DNA of 41,983 bases. Origin: Methanobacteriota archaeon. GTDB lineage: Archaea; Thermoplasmatota; Poseidoniia; Poseidoniales; Poseidoniaceae. The stretch is taken from the NCBI GenBank assembly GCA_002726395.1, contig PBTA01000046.1:52772-94754 (forward strand), given 5' to 3'. The notes below the pieces were generated by a model that saw only the letters and a program-made list of their open reading frames with translations, did no database searches and was not told the origin of the DNA. Positions 2,411 through 39,900 of the stretch are shown here, piece by piece. Position numbers and translations under genes: made by a program. Numbering within the stretch: position 1 is the first letter of the stretch; every line of letters begins with the position of its first letter.

Positions 2411-3100
2411 CTAGTTTAGTAAACCGCTCATTCGATTATACCAAGCGATTCCGTTTTTGTGATCCTCTAGCATAGCAAATTGCGGGAATGGAGAAATTGA
2501 CCGCATATAACCGAATACCGAGAAGTCCACAATGCTTGGCCCACTGCCGCCAAAGAAATCTTTTCCTTGATGCTCATCAGTAAATTCGGTAAGTAAATCA
2601 TGCCAAAGTTGCTTGGGCTTTCGCCCGTCCTTTTTGACGCGCTTTTTTGCAATAATCCCCCACATTATAGGGAATCCTGCCCAAGCATATAGGCGCTTAG
2701 AGATGAAACCAAATTCTTCTAATTTTGAAATACGGGTTGTTGTTTTGAAGGCTGACCCTAAGGTGCCATATAGTATTGGAACGGTTGCCTTAGACATCTT
2801 TTGGTCAGACCAATCTAGCCACTTTGTTGTGCGTTCCTGTTCTGTTACATTTAGTAATTTATTTCCATTATATTGTTCATCAATGAACTTCATAATTGGT
2901 GTTGAATCGACATGGTGAACTCCATTTTCGTCGGTAAAAACAGGCACTTTGCCCCAGTCATCAGTAAACGAAACCGCCTTTTTGATTTTCAATCCGTTAA
3001 CTGCAATAAGGTCTACATCTAAATCTAAATATTCTATGAGTCCCCTTACTTTCCAACAGAATGGACAAGTGTGCAACATGTGCAGTGCTGCTTTTGACAT
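2411..3100 (-). CDS. Glutaredoxin-2 / prostaglandin-E-synthase-2-like GST-fold thiol transferase
   Basis: The N-terminal thioredoxin-fold has a 'TCPFCWKVR' (CPFC) active site followed by 'KVPVF...VDSTPIMKFI', as in Grx2/PGES2-type GSTs. ATG start. The stop lies 8 nt before the next gene's ATG. Confidence 0.75.
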   Translation of the reverse strand: MSKAALHMLHTCPFCWKVRGLIEYLDLDVDLIAVNGLKIKKAVSFTDDWGKVPVFTDENGVHHVDSTPIMKFIDEQYNGNKLLNVTEQERTTKWLDWSDQKMSKATVPILYGTLGSAFKTTTRISKLEEFGFISKRLYAWAGFPIMWGIIAKKRVKKDGRKPKQLWHDLLTEFTDEHQGKDFFGGSGPSIVDFSVFGYMRSISPFPQFAMLEDHKNGIAWYNRMSGLLN

Positions 3101-3125
3101 ATCCTAGCCTGTAATCGAACACTAT

Positions 3126-3461
3126 TCAATCCTTGTCTGCTGAATCGGATACAGGTTTCCAACCAGTTTTCCAAAATTCAAGGTCATCAAGCCATCTTAG
3201 CCATTCTTGATCAGTGCATGACAAGAGCCTAAACGCTCTGCTTTCTAGGGCGTCTTTGTTTACTTTAGACAGTGAACCGTTATCAAAACATTCTTGCCAT
3301 TCTACTTGCATTTGCCTAATTCTTCGTTTTGCTTCTTCGGGATTGTCAAAATTACGTTCACACATATCTCTAAGCTCTAGTAGCCAGGTTCGGCCATCTT
3401 TCATTATTGGCTCAATCGCTCTACGGGCCGACTTAGGTTTTGAAAATGGCCACCAGCCCAT
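3126..3461 (-). CDS. Hypothetical Trp-rich 111-aa protein
   Basis: Clean ATG ORF placed 25 nt upstream of the Grx/GST gene on the same strand. No recognisable motif. Ten Trp in 111 aa ('MGWWPF', 'EWLRWLDDLEFWKTGW'). Confidence 0.55.
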   Translation of the reverse strand: MGWWPFSKPKSARRAIEPIMKDGRTWLLELRDMCERNFDNPEEAKRRIRQMQVEWQECFDNGSLSKVNKDALESRAFRLLSCTDQEWLRWLDDLEFWKTGWKPVSDSADKD

Positions 3462-6923: not shown

Positions 6924-7919
6924 ATGGGTGCCAAAGAGATTCCACAGTTCACCAAAATTGTAGCAGACTCTGATTTTGATGGGTTAATTGGGGCAGCAAT
7001 TCTAAAAGCTTACAATCCTGCTGCAGAAGTGAAGTTTTCACATGCAGCACTGGTAAGAAATGGCAACATGGACGGGGAAATAAATGCCTCTACAGTAATC
7101 GTCGATTTACCATTTCATCAAAACTGCGGGTGGTATTTAGACCATCACCAAACCAACAAACCAACTAAGCAAGAATCGCTAGAATTTGAAAAAAAAGGCG
7201 GAGTTACTGATTGGCAGGCAACTCCATCAGCAGCAAGATTGGTCTATGACCTAATTCATTCCCATTGTGATTTAGCTAATTTTGTTGAGGTAATGCCGTT
7301 TGTTGATGCCCTTGATTCGGGGGGAATCACGATTGAACAGTTTCGCGAAGACGATGAATTAATGCGCTTCAGTCGAACGCTAAAAGTTACCGAAAGCGAT
7401 TACATGAATGATATTGTTACCCATTTATCCCAAGGTAAAACCATCTTCCAAATTCTACAATTACCAGAGGTAAAATCACGACTATTGGTACAGCAAGAAC
7501 AACGATCAGCAATAGAACATGTGGTCCAAGCCAATACCGTAATAATTAACCGACTCGCAGTATGCCATTTACAGGACACAAGATATTTTTCTAATGGATA
7601 CCTAGTGACTGCCTGGGCTGGAGATAAGGCAGATGCTTGTTGCATAATCCATGGATACTCAGATGGCAATATTGACGACCCTAACAGGCCACCACTGTCA
7701 GCAAGTTTCTATGCAAACTCGTTTATCCAGGGCGGGCAAGGCAAGTATGATCTCTCTCGACTTGCCACAAAATTCGACCCAAGTGGCGGAGGACACATGA
7801 ACGCTTGTGGTTGCCGAATTCAGCCTCCGGGGCTTGATGATAACTTAGCAAAATGGCTTCAAATGTGGGCCGATAGAGATACCGTTTTAGCGATTAATCA
7901 CAATACTGCAAATATGTAA
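6924..7919 (+). CDS. DHH/DHHA1-family phosphoesterase (mini RecJ/NrnA-like)
   Basis: Motif I is 'ADSDFDGLIGAAIL', motif III is 'YLDHHQT', and the DHHA1 motif is 'GGGHMNACG'. Confidence 0.8.
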   Translation: MGAKEIPQFTKIVADSDFDGLIGAAILKAYNPAAEVKFSHAALVRNGNMDGEINASTVIVDLPFHQNCGWYLDHHQTNKPTKQESLEFEKKGGVTDWQATPSAARLVYDLIHSHCDLANFVEVMPFVDALDSGGITIEQFREDDELMRFSRTLKVTESDYMNDIVTHLSQGKTIFQILQLPEVKSRLLVQQEQRSAIEHVVQANTVIINRLAVCHLQDTRYFSNGYLVTAWAGDKADACCIIHGYSDGNIDDPNRPPLSASFYANSFIQGGQGKYDLSRLATKFDPSGGGHMNACGCRIQPPGLDDNLAKWLQMWADRDTVLAINHNTANM

Positions 7920-8365
7920 AGGAATCCCAAAAAAGCATGAATGAATATTAACGCCATAATAAAATCCGCCGCCCTGCCATGCTTTAATTTCTCATCAGCG
8001 AACTTCTCACCAGCCAGCCGTTTGCGCTTGACCGATTTTCCTAAGTTAGTCATTATTAGTAATAGCGCGAGGCCAAGAGGGCCAATAAAGCCATGAAGAC
8101 TAGTCGGCCAAATTTCCGCAAAAATATCGCCACTAGAACGCCAGCCTGCAATCATACGTCCAATAAAAGCAACCACTACGACAATAATTCCCGACCATAA
8201 AATAAATTCGCCATTTTTTTCATGTTTTTCTAGAGCATCTTTTCGCAATTGACCTTTCATTCCCTTACTTGTCTTGCGCCATGAGTATTGCTGCCAAATC
8301 CAGTAAATCAGTGCACAGGCTAATACTGGGTGGGCCAGTAATGCAATGGCTCTGATGAAATCCAT
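7898..8365 (-). CDS. Hypothetical 4-TM membrane protein with conserved-looking His residues (DUF4079 / b-type-cytochrome-like?)
   Basis: Four hydrophobic helices. His residues sit at helix ends ('LAHPVL', 'SLHGFIG', 'KHGRAADF', 'FIHAFLG'). The ATG at 8365 is preferred over the TTG at 8377. The 3' end overlaps the DHH gene by 22 nt (convergent). Confidence 0.6.
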   Translation of the reverse strand: MDFIRAIALLAHPVLACALIYWIWQQYSWRKTSKGMKGQLRKDALEKHEKNGEFILWSGIIVVVVAFIGRMIAGWRSSGDIFAEIWPTSLHGFIGPLGLALLLIMTNLGKSVKRKRLAGEKFADEKLKHGRAADFIMALIFIHAFLGFLYIFAVL

Positions 8366-8498
8366 GGTCTCAATCAACCCTCGCTAAAGCCTCTTCATTG
8401 ATGAACACTGGTGATAAAAACCATTTCCCGGATAGTTTTAGCGATAATTGTTGCCGGTTAGTTGAATAGCGACTTAACTAGCCGTCAATATGTAGGGG

Positions 8499-11400
8499 GT
8501 GTATAGTATGCAGGAAGGGCACATGGCAAATTGTTTAGAAATTGCATTCAAACACAATATCCCCAAGCAACAGAGAAAAGCCAAAGTTGCTAAATCACCA
8601 GACTGGCAAATCATGGACAAAAGTTGGCGAAGCATTCTCACGATTGCTTTGGACGAGGTAGAAATTCCGGGTGATGATGAGGATAACAACACTTCTCGCT
8701 CAAGCAGGATGATGCGCCGCAGAGGGCGTGGTTCAGCAGGTAAATCGTCGTTAGACTGGTTGCCCAGTAGTGAAGAAATAACTTCAGACAGTTCTGAAAC
8801 AGCAGCCTATAGACTGGCAGTTTTATTAATTAATAAACAATTAAAGCGCGGGGAGTGGACTGATGATTTGTCCGCAGCTGAAAACGCCATACGCGAAACC
8901 TGTCTTACTAACGGAGTAGACAAGGTGTGGCATCAAATCGGTGAAAAAACCCCCCTACTTGCCCAGTTTATTGGTTTCCCCGTGGCTAAAAAGAAAGCTA
9001 AGAGCAAAAAGAAAGTATCACTATCTGTCGCCAAAATTGACATTTTTGACAACGAACAACTTGGTCAAGCAATATCTCAATTGTCTGTCCTTTGCGGTGA
9101 TGCAGCCCAACAAATTGCGATTCAAAAAATACAATCCCAAATTTCCTCCAGAAGAAGTATTGAGGCGGGGGAAAGTCTACTGTCCCTTACCGGTGATGCG
9201 TCAGTAATATCTGTAATACTTGCAATTGCTAGCGGCTTAAACTCACAAAAAGCGCTGAAAGAATTAGCTAAGAGCGATAAGGAATTAGCCGACCAATTCA
9301 TTGATCTTGTAGATTTAGTCAACGGTAAAGTAAATGATTGGAACAAGAGCATTAATGGCGGAGATGACGGGTTATCAAAAGCAAGAAGGAGATTTGCGTG
9401 GCTTAATTTTACCGATGAGGTTGAAAAATTATCACCTGGTGAAATTTTAGCCGGGATAGAACTGTTAGAGACAATTCCTAACTCACAATTGCAAGTTCAA
9501 AATTTGAAATGGATTCATTTATCTGCCTTAGCGGCAAGCGGTAAAAGCGAGGCTGCAGCAGATGCTTTAGTCACTTACAGCCTTGATAATGCGATAGATA
9601 TTGACAACCTATACCAATTAGTATCTCAATTAAATTCTCCAGCAGTAGAAGATTGGCTTAAGAGCCAGCTAAACGTTCTTGATGAAGGTGCATTAGTGTA
9701 TATAACTCAGCATAAAACCTCATCACTAGATTTGAAAAATGAATGCTTCAAGATGCTTCAAGACAGTGACGGAGAAGCATGGGAAGAATCAAGCATAGCA
9801 GCAATAGCAGTATTTGCTCAAAAACTCGAATTAAGAAGATTGAGTAAAATTTTGACAAATAACGATTTAGCACCTATGTCACATCCGCATGAAACCCTGT
9901 TATCGTATCACTTACTTGCTACCAATCAAGAGCATAACCTGTGGGAAAAGTCAACTCAGATGAGAAAACTTGCCCTAAACTCAATTCACAGTACCGCTTC
10001 GCCAGAGTATTTGTCTCCAATGTCACAGAGTTTAATCATGCTAATGGAAGGCAACAAAATAGATGATGAACACTTTACTGTACTTGGTAAGAAAGGCTAC
10101 CAAGCACTTAGGCAAGCTAGAAATGCATTGAAGCAAGGTGGTACAGGGATTACATCAAGAACTCACATCAATCATCTAACCAATAGTGTAGAAAAGGCAG
10201 ACTTAACCACCTTAGAATCTAATCTTCTGATGGCCTTAATTTCAACATTGAAATTAAATCAGGCAACGATTTCATTACAACATGGTGATGCTGATGAAGA
10301 AATATTTGCCACCTTAAACAGTTTAGTTATTGGGTCTGAAATTCCTACTAGATTTATTCGTGCAATTCGTCAATTAGTCTTCAATCATGATATTGGCTTA
10401 GAACAACTGGTCACCTGGTATCAACAAAACGATCCATTATCTCCTTGGCATACTTTGTCTAGAGCAGCGTTATTTGCGCAAAACAATGAGGAGCTGAATG
10501 CTGCAAGAGAGTACCGCAGAGCCGCAGAAAGTGAAGAATACGACTATGAACATTCAATGATTCTTTACCGTAAATCAATCATTCATCTTGCTCATGCCGA
10601 GCAATGGAAAGAAGCCGTTGAACTATTAGATACCAAACCCGCGTTGCGTACTGCAATAACCAAACGCTTCCAACTTTATCTCAAAGTCTCATTTACTGCA
10701 AGCAATCAAAAAACCAATGAAGCAACACAGTTATTGAAAGACTTTGTTCGCTATTCAAAAGAAGTCGAGGAAGAAAACCTTGACGGAGAAATGGAAACAA
10801 AAACCATCACATTCTTTGCCGAAGATGAACTAGATACGTTGAGAAATTATCCGTTTGAACATTCAAGAGAATTGCCCGGCGATCCGTTTTTGGGGCGCGT
10901 TACTGCAGCACTAAATGCGATTCAACGCAACAAGCGACGTAATCGACATAGTTTTGATAACAGATTCCGCAATGAAATGCAGCAAAATCCGCCGACGATA
11001 ATGGCGATTTATGATATCGCTCGGGACGCTGCTGAAAAGATACCTATTGAAGGTCTAACCTATCTTGAGAGGGCGCAGAATTCTGGTAAATTCAAGCCAT
11101 CAGAAATGAAGACATTATTTGACGCTGAAAGAGCACTATTTGCTACACATAAGTTACAAATTCCTAATTCGTCAAGACGTTATCTTAAGAATTTAGCATT
11201 GCCTCCGTTGGTAGTTGTAGATACTAACATCCTAGTGGATGCATTGGTGGATAAAATTGCCCACAATCTTGAGTTAGCTAGTGAAACAAGTCTAGACTTG
11301 TTTGAGCATGATAACTTCCACAAAGTGCTCAAAAGCCGTGCAGATGCAGGGAGAATCAATCTTTGGCTACCTTCCATAGTGAAACAAGAACTTACTGAAC

Positions 11401-11891
11401 TAAGTAAACGCCACGGCAAATTAAAAGCTAAATTTAGTTCTTCTTTAGTTAAGCCAGAAGTGCTTGAGTCAGTGCTTGATGACGCTAAAATTGCTAAATT
11501 AGTTGATGAAATAATTTCAGAGTATAGCCGCTGGAAACCACTTGATATCCATACTGAAAGAGACGCCATGGACGAACAATCAGATCAGGAAATCAGCCAC
11601 TTCTTAGCCGAATTTTCGGAAATATATGATGAATTAACCGATATGAAATTAAGAAGAGATCCTAAACAAAACCGTACAGAAATTAACGGCAAGGCAATCT
11701 TCCCAGAACCAGCAGACCGTGAAATTATGGCAATTTGCCGAAACTTAGCGTCTCAGTCCTTAGAAGGATTAGGCAGTATTTTGGTAGCAACTAGGGATGG
11801 AGATTTTACTTTGACCGCAAGAGCCTTTGAAGAAAGGTTTGGCTATGGAATAATCAAGAATAGTAAGATGCTAAACTCCTGGTTAAACTAA
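8499..11891 (+). CDS. Large (about 1,130 aa) helical-repeat protein with a C-terminal PIN-domain nuclease
   Basis: A 3.4-kb uninterrupted ORF. Candidate starts are GTG 8499, ATG 8508 and ATG 8523. The C-terminal ~230 aa carry a PIN acidic tetrad: D908 in 'LVVVDTNILVD' (nt 11220), E964 in 'LPSIVKQELTEL' (11388), D1073 in 'PEPADREIM' (11715) and D1100/D1102 in 'VATRDGDF' (11796/11802). The N-terminal ~900 aa look all-helical and TPR-like, with charged patches ('MMRRRGRGS', 'KKKAKSKKK'). Confidence 0.85.
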   Translation: MYSMQEGHMANCLEIAFKHNIPKQQRKAKVAKSPDWQIMDKSWRSILTIALDEVEIPGDDEDNNTSRSSRMMRRRGRGSAGKSSLDWLPSSEEITSDSSETAAYRLAVLLINKQLKRGEWTDDLSAAENAIRETCLTNGVDKVWHQIGEKTPLLAQFIGFPVAKKKAKSKKKVSLSVAKIDIFDNEQLGQAISQLSVLCGDAAQQIAIQKIQSQISSRRSIEAGESLLSLTGDASVISVILAIASGLNSQKALKELAKSDKELADQFIDLVDLVNGKVNDWNKSINGGDDGLSKARRRFAWLNFTDEVEKLSPGEILAGIELLETIPNSQLQVQNLKWIHLSALAASGKSEAAADALVTYSLDNAIDIDNLYQLVSQLNSPAVEDWLKSQLNVLDEGALVYITQHKTSSLDLKNECFKMLQDSDGEAWEESSIAAIAVFAQKLELRRLSKILTNNDLAPMSHPHETLLSYHLLATNQEHNLWEKSTQMRKLALNSIHSTASPEYLSPMSQSLIMLMEGNKIDDEHFTVLGKKGYQALRQARNALKQGGTGITSRTHINHLTNSVEKADLTTLESNLLMALISTLKLNQATISLQHGDADEEIFATLNSLVIGSEIPTRFIRAIRQLVFNHDIGLEQLVTWYQQNDPLSPWHTLSRAALFAQNNEELNAAREYRRAAESEEYDYEHSMILYRKSIIHLAHAEQWKEAVELLDTKPALRTAITKRFQLYLKVSFTASNQKTNEATQLLKDFVRYSKEVEEENLDGEMETKTITFFAEDELDTLRNYPFEHSRELPGDPFLGRVTAALNAIQRNKRRNRHSFDNRFRNEMQQNPPTIMAIYDIARDAAEKIPIEGLTYLERAQNSGKFKPSEMKTLFDAERALFATHKLQIPNSSRRYLKNLALPPLVVVDTNILVDALVDKIAHNLELASETSLDLFEHDNFHKVLKSRADAGRINLWLPSIVKQELTELSKRHGKLKAKFSSSLVKPEVLESVLDDAKIAKLVDEIISEYSRWKPLDIHTERDAMDEQSDQEISHFLAEFSEIYDELTDMKLRRDPKQNRTEINGKAIFPEPADREIMAICRNLASQSLEGLGSILVATRDGDFTLTARAFEERFGYGIIKNSKMLNSWLN

Positions 11892-11893
11892 AC

Positions 11894-12559
11894 CTAGTTT
11901 CTCCATGCTGCATAATATCTTGTAACGTCTTTCGATTCTTGGTAGGAAAATTGAGTAAAGCCGTGCAGTTTTAGACTGCGAAATGAGTCTTTTAACCAAA
12001 CTTCTTTCAGCGGCCAAGGAGGTGATTGTATCATTTGTCCACCGTTATCCAAGCGTCCAATGCACAATAAAAACCCTTCTTTATCGAGTAATTTTGGTAA
12101 ATTTTTAGCCGCAAGTTCTCTTATTCCGCCATCTGGTATTGCTTGCAAAATATGAATTTCAACAACCAAGTCAAATTGTTCAAGCCATTGCTGTGGGGGC
12201 TCGAGGATATCAGCAACTTGCCAATCTACTGAGGACTCAGGAAATCGTTCTTTACACCAATCAATGCATTGCTGTGAAATATCAAAAGCGGTTACCTGGA
12301 AGCCAAGTTCTTCTAAACCTACGGCATCATCACCAAGTCCACAACCAACAATTAACGCTTTACCACTAGAGTGATTTCCTTTTACCCAATCCATCATTAT
12401 CGGATTAGGTGACATTCTTGCCCAAGGAATCATTGACGAATCTCTGTTAGCCAAATCATATAATTCATCAAACCAAGCAATAGGATCATCATTTATTGCG
12501 GCCTTTGCCGTAGAAATTAATTCTTCACGCTCAATTTCGGTCATATCACTCATAATCAT
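11894..12559 (-). CDS. Class I SAM-dependent methyltransferase (TPMT-like)
   Basis: SAM motif I is 'GKALIVGCGLGDDAVGLEELGFQVTAFDIS'. Its ATG (12559-12557) shares one nucleotide with the icd TGA (12561-12559). Confidence 0.85.
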   Translation of the reverse strand: MIMSDMTEIEREELISTAKAAINDDPIAWFDELYDLANRDSSMIPWARMSPNPIMMDWVKGNHSSGKALIVGCGLGDDAVGLEELGFQVTAFDISQQCIDWCKERFPESSVDWQVADILEPPQQWLEQFDLVVEIHILQAIPDGGIRELAAKNLPKLLDKEGFLLCIGRLDNGGQMIQSPPWPLKEVWLKDSFRSLKLHGFTQFSYQESKDVTRYYAAWRN

Positions 12560-13785
12560 CACATGTATGAGATGATTGCATCACCAAACTCGCTACACTT
12601 CAGCAACTTTGCATCGTCCATTAATCTTTCAAAGTCATAGGTAACTGTCTTAGCCGAAATTGCGCCTTCCATTCCTTTGACAATTAGGTCCGCAGCTGCA
12701 GCCCAGCCCATGTGTCTTAGCATCATTTCAGCGCTCAATATAACGCTTCCAGGATTTACTTTATCTTGTCCTGCATATTTTGGTGCAGTTCCGTGAGTTG
12801 CTTCAAAGATAGCAATTCCTGTATCATAATTGATGTTAGCACCAGGCGCAATACCAATTCCACCAACTTGAGCAGCTAATGCATCGGAAATGTAATCACC
12901 GTTAAGATTCATTGTAGCCAGTACAGAATACTCTGCCGGTCTTAGAATAATCTGTTGTAACATTGCATCAGCAATAACATCTTTAATGATGATTTCATTG
13001 CCAGTATGTGGATTTTTCATTGTACACCAAGGGCCGCCATCCAGTTCAGTAGCGCCAAATTCTTGCTTGGCTAATTCATAGCCCCAATCTCTAAATCCAC
13101 CTTCAGTGAATTTCATGATATTTCCTTTGTGCACTAGAGTTACCGTATCCTTATCGTTGTCAACAGCATATTTTAGCGCAGCCCGGACGATTCTTGCAGT
13201 TCCTTCTTGAGATATCGGTTTGATTCCTATCCCTGAGGTATTGGGGAATCTAATCTTATCAACGCCCATCTCATTTTGCAAGAAATCAATAACCTTAGCA
13301 ACTCCTTCAGTGCCTGCCTCCCATTCAATTCCGGCATAAACATCCTCACTGTTTTCACGGAAAATAATCATGTCAACATCTTGTGGTGCTTTAACTGGAG
13401 AAGGAGTGCCGTCATACCATCTAACTGGTCTTACGCAAGCGAATAAGTCCAACTTTTGTCGCAACGCAACGTTGAGTGAACGAATTCCTCCGCCAACAGG
13501 TGTTGTCAGTGGTCCTTTGATAGAGACCAATCCTGACCTCATAGCGTCTAGTGTTTCTTCAGGTAACCACTGACCAGTTTGATTGAATGCCTTTTCTCCA
13601 GCAAGCACCTCACTCCAATGAATCTGCTTTTCACCAGAATATGCTTTACTGACCGCAGCATCGACGACTTTTATCATAACTGGGCTGATATCAACACCAA
13701 TTCCATCACCTTCAATAAAGTGTATTGTAGGATTATCAGGCACATTCAGCAAGCCATTGTTAAGGGTAATAGTCTCTCCAGTCAT
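12559..13785 (-). CDS. icd: Isocitrate dehydrogenase (NADP)
   Basis: '[25 protein letters not shown]', '[20 protein letters not shown]' and '[26 protein letters not shown]' are prokaryotic ICDH signatures. The ATG at 13785 ('MTGETITL') aligns with the start of homologues. The track start at 13794 is a TTG. Confidence 0.95.
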
Positions 13786-18903: not shown

Positions 18904-18981
18904 AACGAGGTGGGGTAGTCTGGATATCCCGTCGGGCTCATAACCCGGAGATCGATGGTTCAAATCCATCCCTCGTTACCA
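18904..18981 (+). tRNA. tRNA-Met (anticodon CAT), initiator-type, with genomically encoded CCA
   Basis: Manual cloverleaf fold. The acceptor stem is aacgagg/cctcgtt (A1:U72). The D arm has A14 and G18G19. The anticodon stem is tcggg/cccgg, giving three consecutive G:C pairs at 29-31:39-41. The anticodon loop is ctCATaa. The T arm is gatgg-ttcaaat-ccatc. The discriminator is A, followed by CCA. A1:U72 together with the triple G:C pairs is the hallmark of archaeal initiator tRNA. Confidence 0.9.
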
Positions 18982-21107: not shown

Positions 21108-21196
21108 TTTGACGTTTTCAGGTTTGTCTTAAAATCGGTATTATTTGTTGAAAAAATAGCGGTATGCTCTTAACGGTTGCATGCTAGAAAGGTGTG

Positions 21197-24100
21197 ATGA
21201 GGGGCAGGTCCAAGGCTTATAGTGGGAGAGCCATTGCTACGCTATTGATTTTATTGATGGGTTTTTCCACCTTGCCAATAACCAATGCAAGTAACCTAGA
21301 TACGGGCGATTTGTATCACCTACAGGCACAAGATATATCAGCAGATTTTGATAGTGCTACAGAGCTAACAACGATTACTTGGCGTAACATCGATAGTCTA
21401 GACCAGCCCAACGCACTTGATAATTTCTTTAATGCGGTTTACAAGGTCTATCGACATTCTGAAATTATTGATTCCCAGAATGTAGTTAATGCTACTTTAG
21501 TTGCGCAAGTCGATGCTTGTGACAGTGAGACGTACTCAGTAAAGTATCTCTGTCTTGGAGGGGCTAATGGCTCCCATCCAGGTCACAGTTTCTCATACTT
21601 GGTAGCGCCTGGTACTAATGACTCATTCTATTATGGAATTACCACTTCAATTACCGCACAAGATAACTCCGTGTCCACTTATGATAGTTTTATCAGCAAT
21701 GAATCTGCAACTTATGAGGCAACAATTGAATCTACCACGCCGATAAGATCGCCGTATAATTTACAAGCCAATTTTAATCCAACAACAAGTATTACTACGC
21801 TTTCATGGATTAACTATAATGATATTTTCTTCATCCTGCCCGAAACCGGTCCAAATGCATACGAGACTAGAATTTGGCAATCCTTCTCACCAATTAACCG
21901 TAATACAAGTCAAACATTGCTCGCTAGTGCAACCCCTGTAGCAGAGTTGTCCCCAGGTATCTCAACATATCAACTTCAAATACCCCTAAATACGGATCGT
22001 GAAGTCTATTACGCGATAACTTATGTTCTGCCAAACTACTTACAAGAAGGGCAAGTTTACGAAGATATCCGGTTCTTGTCTAATAATGCGTTACCAGGTC
22101 CATTCGTCGAAGACAATATGCCACCAAGCCCGGTTTCCTCTGTGAATGCAAACTTCCTGTCAAACCCGTCTACAGGCGATGGAATTACCACGGTTACTTG
22201 GCAAGACTTGTCTAATGAAGATGGGGAAAATTATGCCATTTACAGCTCAGGTGAAGCAATCAATCGTACAGATCAATTTGGCGCCGAGCAAATTGGATTA
22301 GTTGGAGAAGAGATTGGTGAATTTGACTTCACCCTCCCAGTAGGGCGTCTAGGGACTTCACATTATTGCGTAGTGGCTGTTGATAAGAACGGAATTTATG
22401 ACCGTGATATCCAGCCACAATCCTGTTCATTCACTTATGAAAATGCCTTTTATGATTGGATAGCAGAACCCACACAAGTCACAGCAACCTTCCTTGGCGA
22501 GTCCCAAACTCTAATCACATGGAATGATCAACTAGGTGCTGAAGGAGAAAAGTATCATATCTGGCGTTCAAATTATCTCGTTGCAGGTAGTCAATTTGTG
22601 GAAAATGTAACAGTTGAATATCAGGGCACGGTTACCGATGGAATCCAACAATTTATGGTTGATTTACCCAGTGAACAAGATAGAACATCATTTTATTTCG
22701 TTACCAGCGAGGCTCTTTACCAACATAATGCCGGGCCTTATCACTATACATCTCTAATCCAAAATTGGGCCGGCCCGGTGTATGAATACACTCAGACGCC
22801 AAATCCAGCCAGAATTAATGAATTACAAGTCGACGGAGAAATAAAGTTATTGACAATCGAATGGCTTAATGACCCACAATTGGATTTTGAAACATATTCT
22901 ATTTGGCGACATACTGGAAACCCATTTGGAGAAAATGAGGACCAAGTATCTATCACTAACATAGAAAATGGTTGGGAGGTCTTTGACGCGACAATAATCG
23001 ACACCGGCTCTTCAATTACCGAGTTTAAATTCACCAGAACTTACAATCTACCTGCTGATGTTGAGATGTCTGTTTGGTATGCCATTGTTGTTGAGGATGA
23101 AGCAGGCAATGTAAATTTAGAATCATTCCCAGGCTCTGGAGGTAATGCTCTGAAAGTGAAAGAAGATACTGTTCCTCCAACTGCCAATTACACCCTGTAT
23201 GATGATGATGGTGAAATATACACTAGTAGTTCATTGACTTCTGGAAGTTATTCGATTCACTTGTTAAGTGATGAATATCTCTTATCGGCTCCAACAATTA
23301 GTTTGGTAACTTCAACCGGCGGAGATATAACTAATTCAGCCAGACAAATGTTACTTTATGCTGATAATTACCTAAATCCAGGCATTGGTCCAGAATATTA
23401 TCTAACTTTCGATGTACAAAATTCAGTCTCTGCTGGAATGATCACCATTGAAACCGCGTTGGTAGACGAAAGCTATAACAGCAATACTATTCAGTGGGAA
23501 GATAGAAGTTTAGACGCTCAAAACCCCGTGTTATCTGTCTATTCTCCATCATCAATGCAAGATGGCTCAAAGTACCTTTACGGCAATAAAATCACCATTA
23601 ACTCTGGTGCTAGCGATGATGTAGAGATTTCAACAGTACAATACAAATTCACCTATAATTACGCAACCGGGGATTCTTCAACAACACCGTGGACATTCCC
23701 GACAAATCTCCAATCATTAGACGAAGATAACAAAACAGTTGTTTTCTCCGAAGAAATAAGTGCAGGAAATTTCGAACCCGGGACTCACGCAGTATCAATT
23801 AGAGCGATAGATTCTGCAGGAAATGAAGTAGTGGAACAGATAATATTCATTGTTGATTATTGTCGAAACAGAATCGATGGAACCACAGTGTGCAACTATG
23901 AAGAATCACTTAAGCCAGAGCCAGAGCCAATAGTAGTTGAACCATCATTTAGCGACCCGCCATACGTCTTTGTTTGGGTGACTTCGAGTATTGCTCTCTT
24001 GGCAATTATATTGATGCTGTTACTAATCAGTTCTGGAATGCGAGGTCCAAAGAAGAAAAAGTCTGATGATGAATATGATGATGACGATTGGATGTCTGAA

Positions 24101-24448
24101 TTTATTGGAACAAGTCAAGATGTCGATATGGACTCAATAACTAATACTAACAAAAGCCTCCCGGTAGAAGAAGAAGAAAAAACAGTTCTTGATGTTGAAG
24201 AACCAGAAGACAAAGAAGAGGATCCATTTGCCGTCAATGTTCTAAGTAGGAAATCTCGAAGAACCAAGGCCAAGGCGGAACCTGAACCAGAGGATGATGA
24301 CGATTCATTCTTTGGTTTGGATGATGATGATTTTGATGATGACGAGGTCGAAGAGAAGCCCAAACCAAGGCGCAAGGTAGGTCGCAAATTAGCGCCCAAA
24401 AATGCGCCAAAGCGTAGGCCCACTAGAAGGAAAAAATCGGATGATTAA
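21197..24448 (+). CDS. Large surface (glyco)protein: signal peptide, five FN3-like modules, Ig/cadherin-like modules, one TM helix and a charged cytoplasmic tail
   Basis: The signal sequence is 'AIATLLILLMGFSTLPITNA'. A module signature recurs five times: 'TTITW..YKVYRHS..FYYGIT', 'TTLSW..YETRIWQS..VYYAIT', 'TTVTW..YAIYSS..HYCVVAV', 'TLITW..YHIWRS..FYFVTS' and 'LTIEW..YSIWRH..VWYAIVV'. 'EDEAGN' and 'IDSAGNE' motifs are present. Many N-x-S/T sequons. The TM helix spans aa 923-948 (nt 23960-24037). Confidence 0.85.
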   Translation: MRGRSKAYSGRAIATLLILLMGFSTLPITNASNLDTGDLYHLQAQDISADFDSATELTTITWRNIDSLDQPNALDNFFNAVYKVYRHSEIIDSQNVVNATLVAQVDACDSETYSVKYLCLGGANGSHPGHSFSYLVAPGTNDSFYYGITTSITAQDNSVSTYDSFISNESATYEATIESTTPIRSPYNLQANFNPTTSITTLSWINYNDIFFILPETGPNAYETRIWQSFSPINRNTSQTLLASATPVAELSPGISTYQLQIPLNTDREVYYAITYVLPNYLQEGQVYEDIRFLSNNALPGPFVEDNMPPSPVSSVNANFLSNPSTGDGITTVTWQDLSNEDGENYAIYSSGEAINRTDQFGAEQIGLVGEEIGEFDFTLPVGRLGTSHYCVVAVDKNGIYDRDIQPQSCSFTYENAFYDWIAEPTQVTATFLGESQTLITWNDQLGAEGEKYHIWRSNYLVAGSQFVENVTVEYQGTVTDGIQQFMVDLPSEQDRTSFYFVTSEALYQHNAGPYHYTSLIQNWAGPVYEYTQTPNPARINELQVDGEIKLLTIEWLNDPQLDFETYSIWRHTGNPFGENEDQVSITNIENGWEVFDATIIDTGSSITEFKFTRTYNLPADVEMSVWYAIVVEDEAGNVNLESFPGSGGNALKVKEDTVPPTANYTLYDDDGEIYTSSSLTSGSYSIHLLSDEYLLSAPTISLVTSTGGDITNSARQMLLYADNYLNPGIGPEYYLTFDVQNSVSAGMITIETALVDESYNSNTIQWEDRSLDAQNPVLSVYSPSSMQDGSKYLYGNKITINSGASDDVEISTVQYKFTYNYATGDSSTTPWTFPTNLQSLDEDNKTVVFSEEISAGNFEPGTHAVSIRAIDSAGNEVVEQIIFIVDYCRNRIDGTTVCNYEESLKPEPEPIVVEPSFSDPPYVFVWVTSSIALLAIILMLLLISSGMRGPKKKKSDDEYDDDDWMSEFIGTSQDVDMDSITNTNKSLPVEEEEKTVLDVEEPEDKEEDPFAVNVLSRKSRRTKAKAEPEPEDDDDSFFGLDDDDFDDDEVEEKPKPRRKVGRKLAPKNAPKRRPTRRKKSDD

Positions 24449-32387: not shown

Positions 32388-32600
32388 CTACTCAGACAAT
32401 TTCTCTTCTATCTCTGACAGACGCATCTCGTTTAGACGCCCTTCTGCACTGGCTAATTCTTGTTGACAGAATTCTAACAGTTTAGCCCCTTCCTCATATA
32501 ATTTCAAGGTCTCATCTAATGCTATTCCCCCGCGCTCCAAATCTGCAACAATTTCCTCTAAACGCTTAATTGCAATACTGTAACTAATTTCTTCACTCAT
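32388..32600 (-). CDS. xseB: Exodeoxyribonuclease VII small subunit
   Basis: 'SYSIAIKRLEEIVADLERGGIALDETLKLYEEGAKLLEFCQQEL' matches the XseB signature. The ATG at 32600 overlaps the xseA stop by 8 nt. Confidence 0.88.
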   Translation of the reverse strand: MSEEISYSIAIKRLEEIVADLERGGIALDETLKLYEEGAKLLEFCQQELASAEGRLNEMRLSEIEEKLSE

Positions 32601-33924
32601 TTTTTCCACTCTCTTTTGTTATTTCTCCAACTGTAGCCTTAGCAGTTCCATCTGCTAATGCAAGAATTATATTTTGACCTTTACTTAAGTCATTAGTTCT
32701 CGAGATAACTTCACCATTTTCATTTGAAATCATACTATATCCACGCTGTAAAACATTGTTTGGATGAGCCGAATTAAGAGCGGATGCAAACACAGCAAGC
32801 TTAGTCTTCTCTGCAGCAATACTTTGTTGTGCTGCTAGCACCATGATATTACCTAAAGATGCCAATTTCTGTTTTGATTGGCTAAATTTATTGATTACTG
32901 CGGTTGTCAGCCGGTTTGATAAATCGCTTATCTGTTGGTTGGCATTGTATACTCCTTGTAGGGGAGCGTTAAGCAACCTAGATTGTAAAAGGCGTAAGTT
33001 GTTGCGCCAATCGACAAATAATCTTGTTGTTGCATCTGTGATGCGGAGTTCAAAGTTGAGCATCATCATTTGATGTTGATCAAATTCAGGAACTAAACGC
33101 TCTATTGCATTAGAGGGAGTTGATGCTCTCAAGTCAGCCACTAAATCAGCTACTAACATGTCTGACTCGTGTCCAACAGCAGAGATAACGGGTACTGCTG
33201 AAGCAATTATCGCTCTGGCAACCGGCTCAAGATTAAACGCCCACAAATCTTCAGGAGACCCACCCCCCCTTCCAACTATTATCACATCAACAGGTGGTTG
33301 ATTAAGCCGTTTAGCGACCTCAATTTCGGCCAACTTACCTGCGGCAAGAATCCCTCTGACAATTTCATTAGGAGCAGAATTTCCTTGAACAGTAACTCCG
33401 ATGACCGTTCTGCGAATTCCAGGCCATCGGTTTTCGGCCAATCTATTCATATCAGCCAGTGCTGCTGAGCCAACACCAGTGATTATTGCTATGTGTTTTG
33501 GAATTGCTGGTAGAGCCATTCTAGGGCGATCTAACATTCCTTCCGACCGCAGCAACTCAATCAATTGCTTGCGCTGTTCTTCAAGAACTCCAAGCTTGTT
33601 AATCGGCTCGATTCGGTTAACGATTAATTGTATTCTTCCAGACTTGGCATAGAGGTCTAAATTAGCGATAACCACAACGACACTTCCCTCGCCAATACTT
33701 GAATCAATAGTACAACGACCTTGCCAGATAACTGCACTAATTTGCCCATCAGAATCTCGCAATGTAAAGTACGTATGACCGCTTGGGTAGGATTTCCATT
33801 GAGTTATTTCCCCTTTAATGACCTGATTTTGAAATAAATTATCATTACGAATGGTCGTTCTAATCAAATTAACAAACTGTCCCACAGGGATTGGTCCAGT
33901 GGTTAGTTCACTACCACCCCTCAT
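32593..33924 (-). CDS. xseA: Exodeoxyribonuclease VII large subunit
   Basis: The N-terminal OB-fold is 'VIKGEITQWKSYPSGHTYFTLRD'. The catalytic region is 'IIVGRGGGSPEDLWAFN...PVISAVGHESD'. Confidence 0.93.
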   Translation of the reverse strand: MRGGSELTTGPIPVGQFVNLIRTTIRNDNLFQNQVIKGEITQWKSYPSGHTYFTLRDSDGQISAVIWQGRCTIDSSIGEGSVVVVIANLDLYAKSGRIQLIVNRIEPINKLGVLEEQRKQLIELLRSEGMLDRPRMALPAIPKHIAIITGVGSAALADMNRLAENRWPGIRRTVIGVTVQGNSAPNEIVRGILAAGKLAEIEVAKRLNQPPVDVIIVGRGGGSPEDLWAFNLEPVARAIIASAVPVISAVGHESDMLVADLVADLRASTPSNAIERLVPEFDQHQMMMLNFELRITDATTRLFVDWRNNLRLLQSRLLNAPLQGVYNANQQISDLSNRLTTAVINKFSQSKQKLASLGNIMVLAAQQSIAAEKTKLAVFASALNSAHPNNVLQRGYSMISNENGEVISRTNDLSKGQNIILALADGTAKATVGEITKESGKNE

Positions 33925-38129: not shown

Positions 38130-38168
38130 CGACGAAAATAACCGACTAAAAACCGGCGAGTTAGTCGG
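38130..38168 (-). terminator. Hairpin plus U-tract at the 3' end of pus10
   Basis: An 8-bp stem pairs 'ccgactaa' (38142-38149) with 'ttagtcgg' (38161-38168), with an 11-nt loop. It overlaps the pus10 stop codon. The minus-strand RNA continues 'uuauuuucg' immediately after the stem. Confidence 0.45.
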
Positions 38169-39900
38169 CATGAATGTCCCCGACATCTAGCCATAGAACC
38201 TCGCATTTGGCTTTGAGTAAAGAGGCCACACTGGGCTGTGTGCGACCACTGTCACCATGGATGGTTTCTTTGACATAGGTACCAGATTCACAGCGAAGGG
38301 TAACTTCGACTTCTCTGGTACCATCTGGCATAATTTCTACAATCGGCTGGTTGACATCAATCACGTCCCGCCGCCTAATCAGGTCAGCTCTTCGGTGGGC
38401 TACTCGGTCAGGTGTGCGTTGGTACAACTTTACTCCATGCAATGATAAAATTGTGGAAATAATTGTTTCGTCGCTAGGTAATTCAAACAGGGCACTACCA
38501 GGCGCCGGCATAGCGAGGATTCGTTCAATTAACTCTGATTTTTTACCGGTCTTTTTGAGGTTATTTTCAGTACAAATAGCCTCTAGTTCACTCTTCTTCA
38601 TGTTTGACAATTCTTCTTCAGAGGGTCCTTGTTCTTCGGTGACGATTTCGGTTGGCAGTGGCTTAGTGTTGTCTTTCCGCTTGTCGCCTCTTCGATGGCG
38701 TTTTTTATTTGGTTTTTTACTTGATTCTTTGGTTAAATCTAGCGGAGCTGTCAATACGGCGTATTCGCGTTCTTTCATCTGCTCAATTCTAAATCTGATG
38801 GTGTAGGATTTCTCTGCAGGGGTGTCTTTGATTCGTACAACTTCACTCTTATTGGAGGAGCGCAGGTCAGTTACATGAATCGATCCGCCGGCTGCTTCAT
38901 TGATTAGTTGCATAGCATATTGGTAATCAAAATCTCTTACTTTTGGCTCTTTCATCTCGATAACAAAAGGCCTCCCGCGGCCCATGCACCGAACATCGAT
39001 ATCTTCACGCCCCATGCCGTGGAATGAATGTTCAGGAGCGCCAAATACTTCCAGCAGCGGATTGCCGATTAAATCCTGCACACTTCTTAGGTATTGCAGT
39101 CCAGTGTTGTTGCAACGCTCACAGCCGCGACCTTTGCAGGCACGACACGGCCACCTTGTTTGAGGAATGCCTCGTTCGAGCTTTTGATATCTACCGTAAA
39201 TGTAATGCGACCTTATGTCAAGGGAGACAGTAAGTGTTAGGACATCGATTAAAGCAAGAACATGTGGATTCTCATTGACCAATTTAGCACCTTTTAGCCT
39301 GGAGGTTAAATTTCTTGCAATCTCTGTAACCAGTCCGGTTTTCAAACCATCTGAACCACCAGCGCCGAAGCGTTTTCTCTGAATATCTTCTTCCTCAACT
39401 TGGTCTTTGGGAAATCTTGTACCTAATTGCAATCGCTTAATTTGGTAAGGCTGTACTGCGTCATAGATTATGTCAGCAAGTAAATCAGCTTCTTCAAATA
39501 AATTTTCACAAAGCGGGCAAAGCGAAACCTCCTGTCTAATATTTGCTAATTGCTTATTGCCACTTACGACAGTATTACGGATCTCTTGTCCTGATTCTTC
39601 AATGGTTTGGCTAAACCGCTTCTTACCGCCAAGGCGGCCGATGCAATGGTCACAGCACCCGATTCTAACCAAATGCTTCAGGCCAGCAGGATTGGGTGCG
39701 CGTGGGACCTCTTCCATGTGGGTTCCTAGTTGTTCAGTGGGTAACGAGTCGAGTTGTTCTGGCTCCTCGCCCTCCTCATCCGATGCAGCGGTTTCTTCTT
39801 CCTCCCAAAGCGAATAATTAGTCTGCCCAAAGCCGGCACTGGCATATTTCATCCAGTCTTCATCATTTTCATTTTCAGACATTAAATTCACCACTGCCAT
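38161..39900 (-). CDS. pus10: tRNA pseudouridine(54/55) synthase Pus10, with an acidic N-terminal extension and an internal Lys-rich/SAP-like insertion
   Basis: The Zn-ribbon is 'CCDHCIGRLGG' plus 'CPLCENLF'. 'WPCRACKGRGCERCNNTG', 'HGMGREDIDVRCMGRGRPFVIE' and 'YQRTPDRVAHRRADLIRRR' are present. At 579 aa it is longer than the ~400-440 aa I recall for archaeal Pus10. Confidence 0.92.
   Translation of the reverse strand: MAVVNLMSENENDEDWMKYASAGFGQTNYSLWEEEETAASDEEGEEPEQLDSLPTEQLGTHMEEVPRAPNPAGLKHLVRIGCCDHCIGRLGGKKRFSQTIEESGQEIRNTVVSGNKQLANIRQEVSLCPLCENLFEEADLLADIIYDAVQPYQIKRLQLGTRFPKDQVEEEDIQRKRFGAGGSDGLKTGLVTEIARNLTSRLKGAKLVNENPHVLALIDVLTLTVSLDIRSHYIYGRYQKLERGIPQTRWPCRACKGRGCERCNNTGLQYLRSVQDLIGNPLLEVFGAPEHSFHGMGREDIDVRCMGRGRPFVIEMKEPKVRDFDYQYAMQLINEAAGGSIHVTDLRSSNKSEVVRIKDTPAEKSYTIRFRIEQMKEREYAVLTAPLDLTKESSKKPNKKRHRRGDKRKDNTKPLPTEIVTEEQGPSEEELSNMKKSELEAICTENNLKKTGKKSELIERILAMPAPGSALFELPSDETIISTILSLHGVKLYQRTPDRVAHRRADLIRRRDVIDVNQPIVEIMPDGTREVEVTLRCESGTYVKETIHGDSGRTQPSVASLLKAKCEVLWLDVGDIHAD

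Follow-up and report, generated by a model that had tools for sequence, protein, structure and literature searches.

The window analysed here, a stretch of 41,983 nucleotides (nt) of contig PBTA01000046.1 (positions 52,772 to 94,754 of the forward strand; assembly GCA_002726395.1) from an archaeon placed by GTDB in the Poseidoniaceae, carries at 8499..11891 an open reading frame (ORF) that raises a simple question: what does so large a protein do, when most of its length matches no characterised family and its C-terminal end bears the marks of a nuclease? A preliminary description, made from the letters alone, had called the product an orphan helical-repeat protein ending in a PIN nuclease domain of the SMG6/YlaK kind, and had considered roles in RNA surveillance, ribosome quality control or defence. 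The reading that we favour, and hold to be probable with some reserve, is that the gene encodes a lineage-specific, chromosomally fixed housekeeping protein of the order Poseidoniales, a metal-dependent nuclease tethered to a large scaffold.

The C-terminal domain and its acidic residues

The acids that the preliminary description had picked out lie in the strings VVVDTNILVD (from residue 905), LPSIVKQELTEL (957), PEPADREIM (1069) and ATRDGDF (1097), all of which are placed correctly, and residues 908, 964, 1073, 1100 and 1102 of the translation read D, E, D, D and D. The complete acidic site is conserved across orthologues at 25-93% identity: D908, D1073, D1100 and D1102 are invariant among 29 family members and E964 is kept in 28, the exception (P0046) carrying Q. 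At 25-30% overall identity these 29 members share only 32 invariant columns overall, including D908-T909-N910, R1059, P1069-E1070, D1073, G1092, A1097 and D1100-x-D1102-F1103, and the family-wide motifs (PLVxVDTNILIDAL, IPxxVxxE, IYPExxDxxIM and GSVLVATRDSDF), judged as sequence, follow the classic PIN pattern. When sequence order is set against the predicted strands, the acids fall in the order of the PIN superfamily, that is, at the end of beta1, in the helix after beta2, in the helix after beta3 and after beta4.

Modelled by itself with AlphaFold2 (AF2) from the 29-sequence alignment, the domain gave alternating strands and helices at a predicted local distance difference test (pLDDT) score of 88.9 and a predicted template modelling (TM) score of 0.88. 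The strands are VVVD, NLW, a hairpin ending in IFPE, ILVA and GII, with five extra helices between E964 and the hairpin, and a strand precedes each acidic motif. Searched with Foldseek against the PDB, this model matched first the PIN domain of human EST1A/SMG6 (2dok; probability 0.96, E=0.036), then, at ranks 2 and 3, two chains of Rickettsia VapC2 (3zvk; best probability 0.91, target-normalised TM 0.62) and, at rank 5, Haemophilus VapC-1 (6nkl; target-normalised TM 0.49). Against BFVD the top two matches were annotated viral PIN proteins (probability 0.97 and 0.95), and the rest did not exceed 0.13.

A Pfam scan covering about 24,700 families gave a similar picture at lower strength. The families matched by more than one of the 29 members were PIN_12 (seven), PIN (four) and PIN_4 (three), all of the PIN clan and all sub-threshold; PIN_3 and NYN, likewise PIN-clan and sub-threshold, were matched by one member each. 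The window protein itself matches PIN (PF01850), PIN_12 and PIN_3 below their cut-offs. Excision of the extra helices, described below as an insert, improved the Pfam scores little or not at all and left every one sub-threshold, although one member then aligned to PF01850 over profile positions 1-118 of 120.

Several results weigh against our reading, and we set them out together. In the full-length AF2 model the C-terminal region was not folded (pLDDT 30-50, no strands); it did fold when the domain was modelled alone from a more diverse alignment. The Foldseek E-values ranged from 0.013 to 0.3, none reaching 1e-3, with target-normalised TM values of 0.28-0.62. The best Pfam scores fell short of their cut-offs (18.9 against 23.6 bits for PF01850, 20.7 against 21.9 for PF13638, and 20.1 against 32 for PF16289). 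Searches of PDB sequences, whether with the domain itself or with hidden Markov profiles of the full length, of the domain and of the domain less its insert, returned no PIN chain; the matches were short and spurious, namely to the neck repeat of a C-type lectin, to a SaPI capsid-morphogenesis protein that has 'DTNLLI' in common, and to FabH. No sequence-based search reached significance for PIN. When 5.8 billion proteins were searched with the domain profile, the matches were all fragments of the family itself, with no bridge to other PIN families or architectures. Finally, because the whole genomic region is syntenic, the neighbouring genes do not discriminate between functions.

One could conclude from the sub-threshold outcome of every sequence-based test, from Foldseek E-values above the usual 1e-3 criterion and from the failure of the full-length model on this region that the domain is not PIN at all, but some other small alpha/beta domain whose acids bind metal to serve another kind of chemistry, or a module for interaction without catalysis, its motif pattern having arisen by convergence and its AF2 and Foldseek match being spurious. 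We give this little credence. Four or five acids stand in the canonical PIN order and at the canonical positions of the predicted secondary structure, two structure libraries both rank PIN first at probabilities of 0.95-0.97 while unrelated folds reach at most 0.13, and the Pfam families matched by more than one member are without exception PIN-clan. A Toprim-type reading of the E...DxD pattern was also considered and rejected; the Toprim order of acids differs from that of PIN, the acids here are in PIN order, and none of the Foldseek matches listed was described as Toprim. The PIN fold of the preliminary description is thus recovered as the top match in the PDB and in BFVD, though at E-values of no formal weight and with Pfam matches that all stay below threshold. 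No single test being formally significant, their combination makes it very probable, on the strength of models and motifs, that the C-terminal domain is PIN-like and has an intact active site.

The domain also has a long E-to-D spacing. E964 and D1073 lie 109 residues apart, compared with 56 (E42-D98) in the Shigella VapC sequence, which we verified to be identical to PDB 3tnd, and with 71 in human SMG6 by the residue numbers given in PMC5499597. The earlier estimate of roughly 50 residues more than in VapC was accurate, and the excess is explained by a helical insert of about 85 residues, modelled as five helices. Within it W1012, F1035 and K1050 are nearly invariant, and its ratio of nonsynonymous to synonymous substitution (dN/dS) is about 0.03 or lower. 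An insert in the same position, long, helical and following strand S2, occurs in DUF4935/PIN_12 (PF16289), which also draws more members than any other Pfam family (7 of 29, best E=2.2e-4). The likeness ends there: DUF4935 proteins, of about 350 residues, carry PIN at the N-terminus and an alpha/beta region towards the C-terminus, whereas here the PIN-like domain is C-terminal and stands behind an all-helical scaffold, and the matches of about 20 bits compare with a 32-bit cut-off. DUF4935 genes are described (PMC5499597) as usually mono-cistronic and of unknown function, and nearly all of them are bacterial (310 bacterial and 2 archaeal members), in contrast to the archaeal family studied here.

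Which kind of PIN domain this might be is harder to say. With the PIN superfamily at large (Pfam clan CL0280, VapC-like group), classified by Matelska et al. in 2017 (PMC5499597), the domain shares the order and placement of the acids, the D-T-N at the end of beta1, the T-x-D-x-D-F after beta4 and a predicted alpha/beta fold whose best structural matches are PIN; it departs from that superfamily in being too divergent for any Pfam PIN model, in its insert, and in lying C-terminal to a helical protein of about 885 residues. With SMG6/EST1A (PIN_4, PF13638), the eukaryotic endonuclease of nonsense-mediated decay (NMD), it shares a long preceding helical region, a full acidic tetrad and the second-acid motif P-x-x-V-x-x-E-L (VPLIVINEL in SMG6, LPSIVKQEL here), but the E-to-D distance differs, the host is an archaeon, and the N-terminal part has no detectable homology to the 14-3-3-like/TPR region of SMG/EST1 proteins. 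An hhalign comparison of the insert-excised profile with a verified single SMG6 PIN sequence gave P=2.7e-4 and paired D908 with D1251 and E964 with E1282; against a 23-sequence SMG6 family profile the result was not significant (P=5e-3, probability 7%), and against Shigella VapC P was 0.085. VapC, the toxin of type II VapBC systems, is alike in predicted fold (3zvk, 6nkl), in its acids and in its T-x-D-x-D-F-type motif, a form of the last motif that is more typical of VapC-type domains; it is unlike in its length of about 130 residues against about 1,130 here, and in that the present gene stands at a fixed core locus with nothing VapB-like beside it. The SMG6/YlaK subtype proposed in the preliminary description therefore keeps its top PDB match and its shared second motif, but is set back by the E-value of that match, by PIN_4 matches in only 3 of 29 members and by the family-profile probability. 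We treat the SMG6-type assignment as a weak lead, and prefer neither the SMG6 nor the VapC type. As for the YlaK side of the comparison (PhoH2/YlaK, PIN_4 plus a PhoH ATPase), there was no PhoH match in Pfam. Strings of the P-loop form [AG]xxxxGK[ST] occur at 76-83, within a disordered loop, and at 343-350, but a P-loop ATPase was rejected, as the family consensus has no GK[ST].

Distribution and constraint of the family

The preliminary description had called the protein an orphan. This was wrong, since relatives occur throughout the order. Twenty-eight full-length homologues, 51-93% identical to the window protein, came from a word-indexed search, and 215 matches from an exhaustive search, with a profile, of 1.8 billion cluster representatives; of the latter matches about 30 were full-length (1,090-1,170 residues, reaching down to 25% overall identity) and the remainder fragments. 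A scan of GTDB species representatives (alignment A1) gave 53 loci in as many species-level genomes, labelled Poseidoniales, Poseidoniaceae, Thalassarchaeaceae, or generically as marine metagenome-assembled genomes of a 'Euryarchaeota', 'Methanobacteriota' or 'Thermoplasmatota archaeon'; the most divergent clusters carry the NCBI names Candidatus Thalassarchaeum, Thalassarchaeaceae and Poseidoniales. The family thus covers both families of the Poseidoniales, Poseidoniaceae and Thalassarchaeaceae (Marine Group IIa and IIb, MGIIa and MGIIb), and no member was seen outside the Poseidoniales, the Marine Group II archaea, in the protein-cluster and GTDB representative searches. The gene is single-copy at a conserved locus. 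The names attached to its relatives in the databases are nearly all 'hypothetical protein', with 'predicted nucleic acid-binding protein' and 'LabA/DUF88' on some JGI fragments, and we found no prior description of the family in the literature searched. The JGI name 'negative regulator of replication initiation', borne by one homologue, was set aside as probably a chance SeqA match (one member, E=0.08).

Set against four close orthologues, the gene as a whole has a dN/dS of 0.03-0.05, with values of 0.01-0.02 for the C-terminal domain and 0.04-0.05 for the N-terminal part, so that strong purifying selection acts along the entire length. Together with the homologues and the 53 genomes, this places the ORF far beyond chance as a real gene. 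It is uninterrupted from a GTG at 8499, with 1,130 codons and a stop; the true start is probably the ATG at 8508 (M4), which is preceded by a Shine-Dalgarno-like GGGGGTG string and would give 1,127 residues, the length of several close homologues, including P0001 at 93% identity. As the preliminary description had it, no gene of unknown function in the window is larger; the next-largest such ORF, at 21194..24448 (+), encodes 1,084 residues whose sole Pfam signal is a marginal match to DUF4625 (28.3 bits against a 27-bit cut-off, residues 770-879).

Short matches, where examined, proved to be frameshifted or truncated gene calls. Two apparent stand-alone PIN genes on long contigs (P0186 and P0210) were rejected as true fissions, being a frameshifted gene call and a stop-interrupted gene. 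At L061:3239-6711 the orthologue is called in two pieces, of 921 and 236 residues, which overlap by 4 nt close to the boundary of the PIN domain. Since the frame of the PIN piece stays open upstream of the point where they meet, the split reflects a frameshift and no real fission of the gene; the contig had been polished with pilon, and the frameshift is probably an artefact of assembly. At L062:3541-6906 one in-frame stop within the most conserved linear segment (YPxEH...PF.GRV) leads to calls of 774 and 301 residues; it may reflect a sequencing error, a pseudogene or recoding. The full length is kept in the approximately 30 divergent representatives, and the stand-alone format of about 130 residues is not what we find.

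These data bear on whether the protein might be a stand-alone toxin or anti-virus nuclease, a PIN effector restrained by its N-terminal part, acting as sensor or as antitoxin in cis, and freed upon infection or stress. PIN domains are common toxin effectors (PMC5499597); the best-represented sub-threshold family, PIN_12/DUF4935, is usually mono-cistronic and has its helical insert at the same position; and the protein diverges rapidly, keeping about 40% identity where isocitrate dehydrogenase (IDH), FtsZ and RadA retain 81-87%. Such a role is nevertheless improbable. The gene sits at the same locus, in a housekeeping block, in 53 of 53 species-level genomes and in MGIIb, not in the patchy or island-like manner of defence genes, and the purifying selection on it is uniformly strong. 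With PADLOC the whole protein matched nothing and its C-terminal part only Cas12a, below threshold (E=0.027), no relatives were found on viral contigs, and there is no antitoxin-sized neighbour. The co-oriented antitoxin gene of VapBC systems, usually upstream, is not adjacent in the window or in related loci, where the neighbours are a divergent protein with four predicted transmembrane segments and a convergent methyltransferase or IDH, as the preliminary description had already noted for the window; a VapBC-type toxin is therefore unlikely. The defence option of that description is accordingly disfavoured. A housekeeping role, on the other hand, agrees with the synteny in 53 genomes, partial still at 27% identity, with the low dN/dS, with the lack of viral or antitoxin context and with the sub-threshold PADLOC result.

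The N-terminal scaffold and the neighbouring genes

The coordinates of the gene, its parts and its neighbours are collected in Table 1.

Table 1. Features of the gene and of adjacent genes, in positions of the window.
Feature	Coordinates	Strand	Basis
Complete gene	8499..11891	+	ORF list; start context; homologue lengths; dN/dS against four orthologues
Arg-rich disordered loop, residues 58-82 (...SRMMRRRGRGSAGK)	8670..8744	+	pLDDT <50; isoelectric point (pI) 11.3
All-helical solenoid-like scaffold, residues 83-750, no known family	8745..10748	+	AF2
Lys-rich loop, residues 161-175, PVAKKKAKSKKKVSL	8979..9023	+	pLDDT <50 at 165-170; pI 10.8
Beta-hairpin (751-773; strands 751-759 and 765-773), then conserved segment ~776-800	10749..10898	+	AF2
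Basic helical linker, scaffold to nuclease, residues 801-885	10899..11153	+	helices predicted at 800-883; pI 10.2, net charge +6
Putative PIN-like nuclease domain, residues 886-1130	11154..11888	+	domain-only AF2 model; Foldseek; recurrent sub-threshold PIN-clan Pfam matches
D908-T909-N910, first putative catalytic acid, end of strand beta1	11220..11228	+	invariant 29/29; codons checked
E964, second putative catalytic acid, helix after beta2, motif P-x-x-V-x-x-E	11388..11390	+	28/29
Helical insert of ~85 residues, 972-1055, between E964 helix and beta3	11412..11663	+	five predicted helices
P1069-E1070-x-x-D1073, third putative catalytic acid and extra invariant acid, beta3/helix junction	11703..11717	+	invariant 29/29
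D1100-x-D1102, then F1103, fourth acidic position after beta4 (T-x-D-x-D-F)	11796..11804	+	invariant 29/29
g11, conserved neighbour, 331 residues, PggH-related	6924..7919	+	phmmer against PDB 7d62_A (PggH), E=4.2e-11
g12, upstream divergent neighbour, 159 residues, His-containing, four hydrophobic segments	7898..8377	-	121 nt from PIN gene
Class-I methyltransferase, downstream convergent neighbour, TPMT/TehB-like	11894..12562	-	Pfam Methyltransf_25/11, TPMT; 2-nt gap

Ahead of the linker, the protein is modelled from about residue 90 to 750 entirely as helices, with pLDDT mostly 75-92 except in the Lys-rich loop and at a dip near 545. The 'helical/TPR-like repeats' of the preliminary description are in this sense borne out as an almost all-helical scaffold, whereas their TPR-like, repeated nature is not seen at the sequence level: comparison of segment against segment with hhalign found no internal sequence repeats, and no Pfam family recurs in the N-terminal region across the 29 members, single members matching PPR or TPR_12 at E of about 0.08. 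Foldseek with the full-length model returned only generic TPR/HEAT/ARM scaffolds (IFT-A, Ctr9, CAND1, Ski3 and importins) at TM values of at most 0.2. In Pfam and Foldseek, then, the N-terminal portion of about 885 residues has no confident match to a characterised family.

The two basic patches noted earlier, MMRRRGRGS at 71 and KKKAKSKKK at 164, are correctly placed and fall in the two loops. In the Arg-rich loop R74 and R75 are nearly invariant family-wide, and the loop may have a role in nucleic-acid binding. The Lys-rich loop is conserved only in closer (MGIIa) members, K164 being invariant in alignment A1 and not in A2. The conserved segment at about 776-800, EDELDxLxxYPxEHxxxLPxxPFxGR, is modelled as low-confidence coil, with Y784, L792, P793, G799 and R800 invariant at 25% overall identity.

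A protein that runs from a long helical array into a C-terminal PIN-like domain invites comparison with two known designs, SMG6, in which a TPR/14-3-3-like region precedes PIN, and PRORP, in which PPR repeats precede NYN, and thus raises the possibility of a scaffolded RNA-processing or surveillance enzyme whose solenoid would recruit it to ribosomes, pre-tRNA or pre-rRNA; this would be a special case of the reading that we favour. The gross architecture agrees, the top PDB fold match is the SMG6 PIN domain and the single-sequence hhalign comparison pairs the two, and a core, single-copy, order-wide distribution fits an essential role in RNA metabolism. The specific similarities do not follow. 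No EST1-type Pfam match to the SMG5/SMG6/SMG7-EST1 family occurs in the 29 members, the PPR and TPR_12 matches are those of single members, the 50 Foldseek matches listed for the full-length model include no structure of SMG5/6/7 or PRORP, and the SMG6 family profile gives the low probability reported above. PRORP shares the design principle of a helical array delivering substrate to a C-terminal PIN-like metallonuclease, but PPR and NYN are each matched by 1 of 29 members (E of about 0.03-0.08). A PRORP-type zinc site was looked for and rejected: there are no Cys clusters, the five Cys being scattered with no CxxC motif. We regard this special case as unlikely. The parallel with SMG5/SMG6/EST1 drawn in the preliminary description holds for the gross architecture and fails for the scaffold, which has no specific similarity to SMG5/6/7 or EST1; because neither a SMG/EST1 Pfam match nor a SMG structure among the 50 matches listed was found, the parallel with SMG6 is architectural and not homologous. 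NMD itself has been described (PMC5031192) as confined to eukaryotes.

When 22 proteins of the window were compared with all loci by local tblastn, a stable block order emerged, which holds in every locus long enough to display it: NUDIX, g11, g12, the PIN gene, an optional methyltransferase, IDH, OsmC, FtsZ and RadA. At 27% identity the MGIIb-like locus L059 still reads Cob_adeno_trans, NUDIX, g11, the PIN gene, methyltransferase, then IDH and OsmC; in the divergent lineage represented by L062 the neighbourhood differs, except for a divergently adjacent g12 homologue at 2960-3448 (-). The PIN gene is a fixed core-chromosome gene.

The neighbours are as the preliminary description had them, divergent with four hydrophobic segments upstream and a convergent methyltransferase downstream. 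The sole Pfam signal of g12 is a weak cytochrome b561-like match (E=0.05). Its homologue in L062 (35% identity, E=5e-26) adjoins the PIN gene where all other neighbours differ, and g12 is absent from L059; its adjacency is a candidate functional link.

The neighbour g11 was detected in each locus reaching that side except L062, and in L059 it lies directly upstream on the same strand. It has no Pfam match, and by eye shows the motifs DSDFDG, DHH and GGGH. From its sequence we take g11 to be a divergent DHH/DHHA1-type phosphoesterase, nanoRNase- or pGpG-hydrolase-like; PggH is a DHH/DHHA1 nanoRNA/pGpG hydrolase, of the type of enzyme that clears short RNA fragments. A conserved neighbour of this kind would suit the special case set out above, and one can extend that case to an order-specific, essential RNA-processing or surveillance endonuclease, of SMG6/PRORP-like design but independent origin, with the PggH-related protein as its partner. 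This would act either in translation- or ribosome-coupled quality control of mRNA or rRNA, or in protein-only processing of stable RNA. Since synteny extends over the entire region, the position of g11 next to the gene carries no information, and we consider the extended version slightly more unlikely than the special case itself.

The methyltransferase is a variable insertion, present in the window, in L003-L005, in L059 and in about 20 GTDB loci, and absent between the PIN gene and IDH elsewhere, including L001 and L002. In L059 a Bac_rhodopsin gene (proteorhodopsin-type; 12047-12916, +) separates the methyltransferase from IDH, within a few kb of the PIN gene; the window has none at the equivalent position.

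Three further features of the window are recorded for completeness. A Pus10-type tRNA pseudouridine synthase (Pus10_C and archaeal THUMP) at 38161..39900 (-) carries a SAP domain match at residues 431-462, an unexpected combination. A tRNA at 18904..18978 (+; 62 bits) is the sole Rfam match at gathering threshold across the 42-kb window. At 32593..33924 (-) lies an ORF with a clear match to the exonuclease VII large subunit (XseA-type, E=3e-73); exonuclease VII is mostly bacterial, and this archaeal gene may be a horizontal acquisition.

Proposed function and what it would mean

In the reading that we favour, a scaffold-tethered housekeeping nuclease, the acids D908, E964, D1073 and D1100/D1102, with E1070, would coordinate Mg2+ or Mn2+ for the cleavage of phosphodiester bonds. 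The substrate would most likely be single-stranded or structured RNA, by analogy with the characterised VapC-group PIN domains (PMC5499597). The helical platform, the basic loops and the linker would select or position that substrate, or dock the enzyme onto a partner complex, and the PIN insert may contribute to substrate recognition. Metal-dependent endonuclease activity, an RNA substrate and a scaffolding or recruiting N-terminal part are what we infer; a role in RNA surveillance or ribosome quality control, as the preliminary description had it, is pure speculation.

The arrangement of a large non-repeat helical scaffold and a C-terminal PIN domain with an 85-residue insert was found in no described family, and as far as searched it is absent from the 2017 classification of the PIN superfamily (PMC5499597). 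It would represent a PIN family that current Pfam models miss and that is confined to one archaeal order. The enzyme class is a known one and, because PIN nucleases fused to accessory domains are common, no new mechanistic class is opened. A protein that the databases call hypothetical can now be described as a scaffold-tethered PIN-like nuclease, and a concrete hypothesis can be offered, namely metal-dependent RNA cleavage that is lost with D908A or D1073A. Marine Group II archaea are described as the most abundant planktonic archaea in the surface ocean, and as uncultured. Genes that are universal in this order, specific to the lineage and held under strong constraint are good candidates for explaining the distinctive cell biology of Marine Group II.

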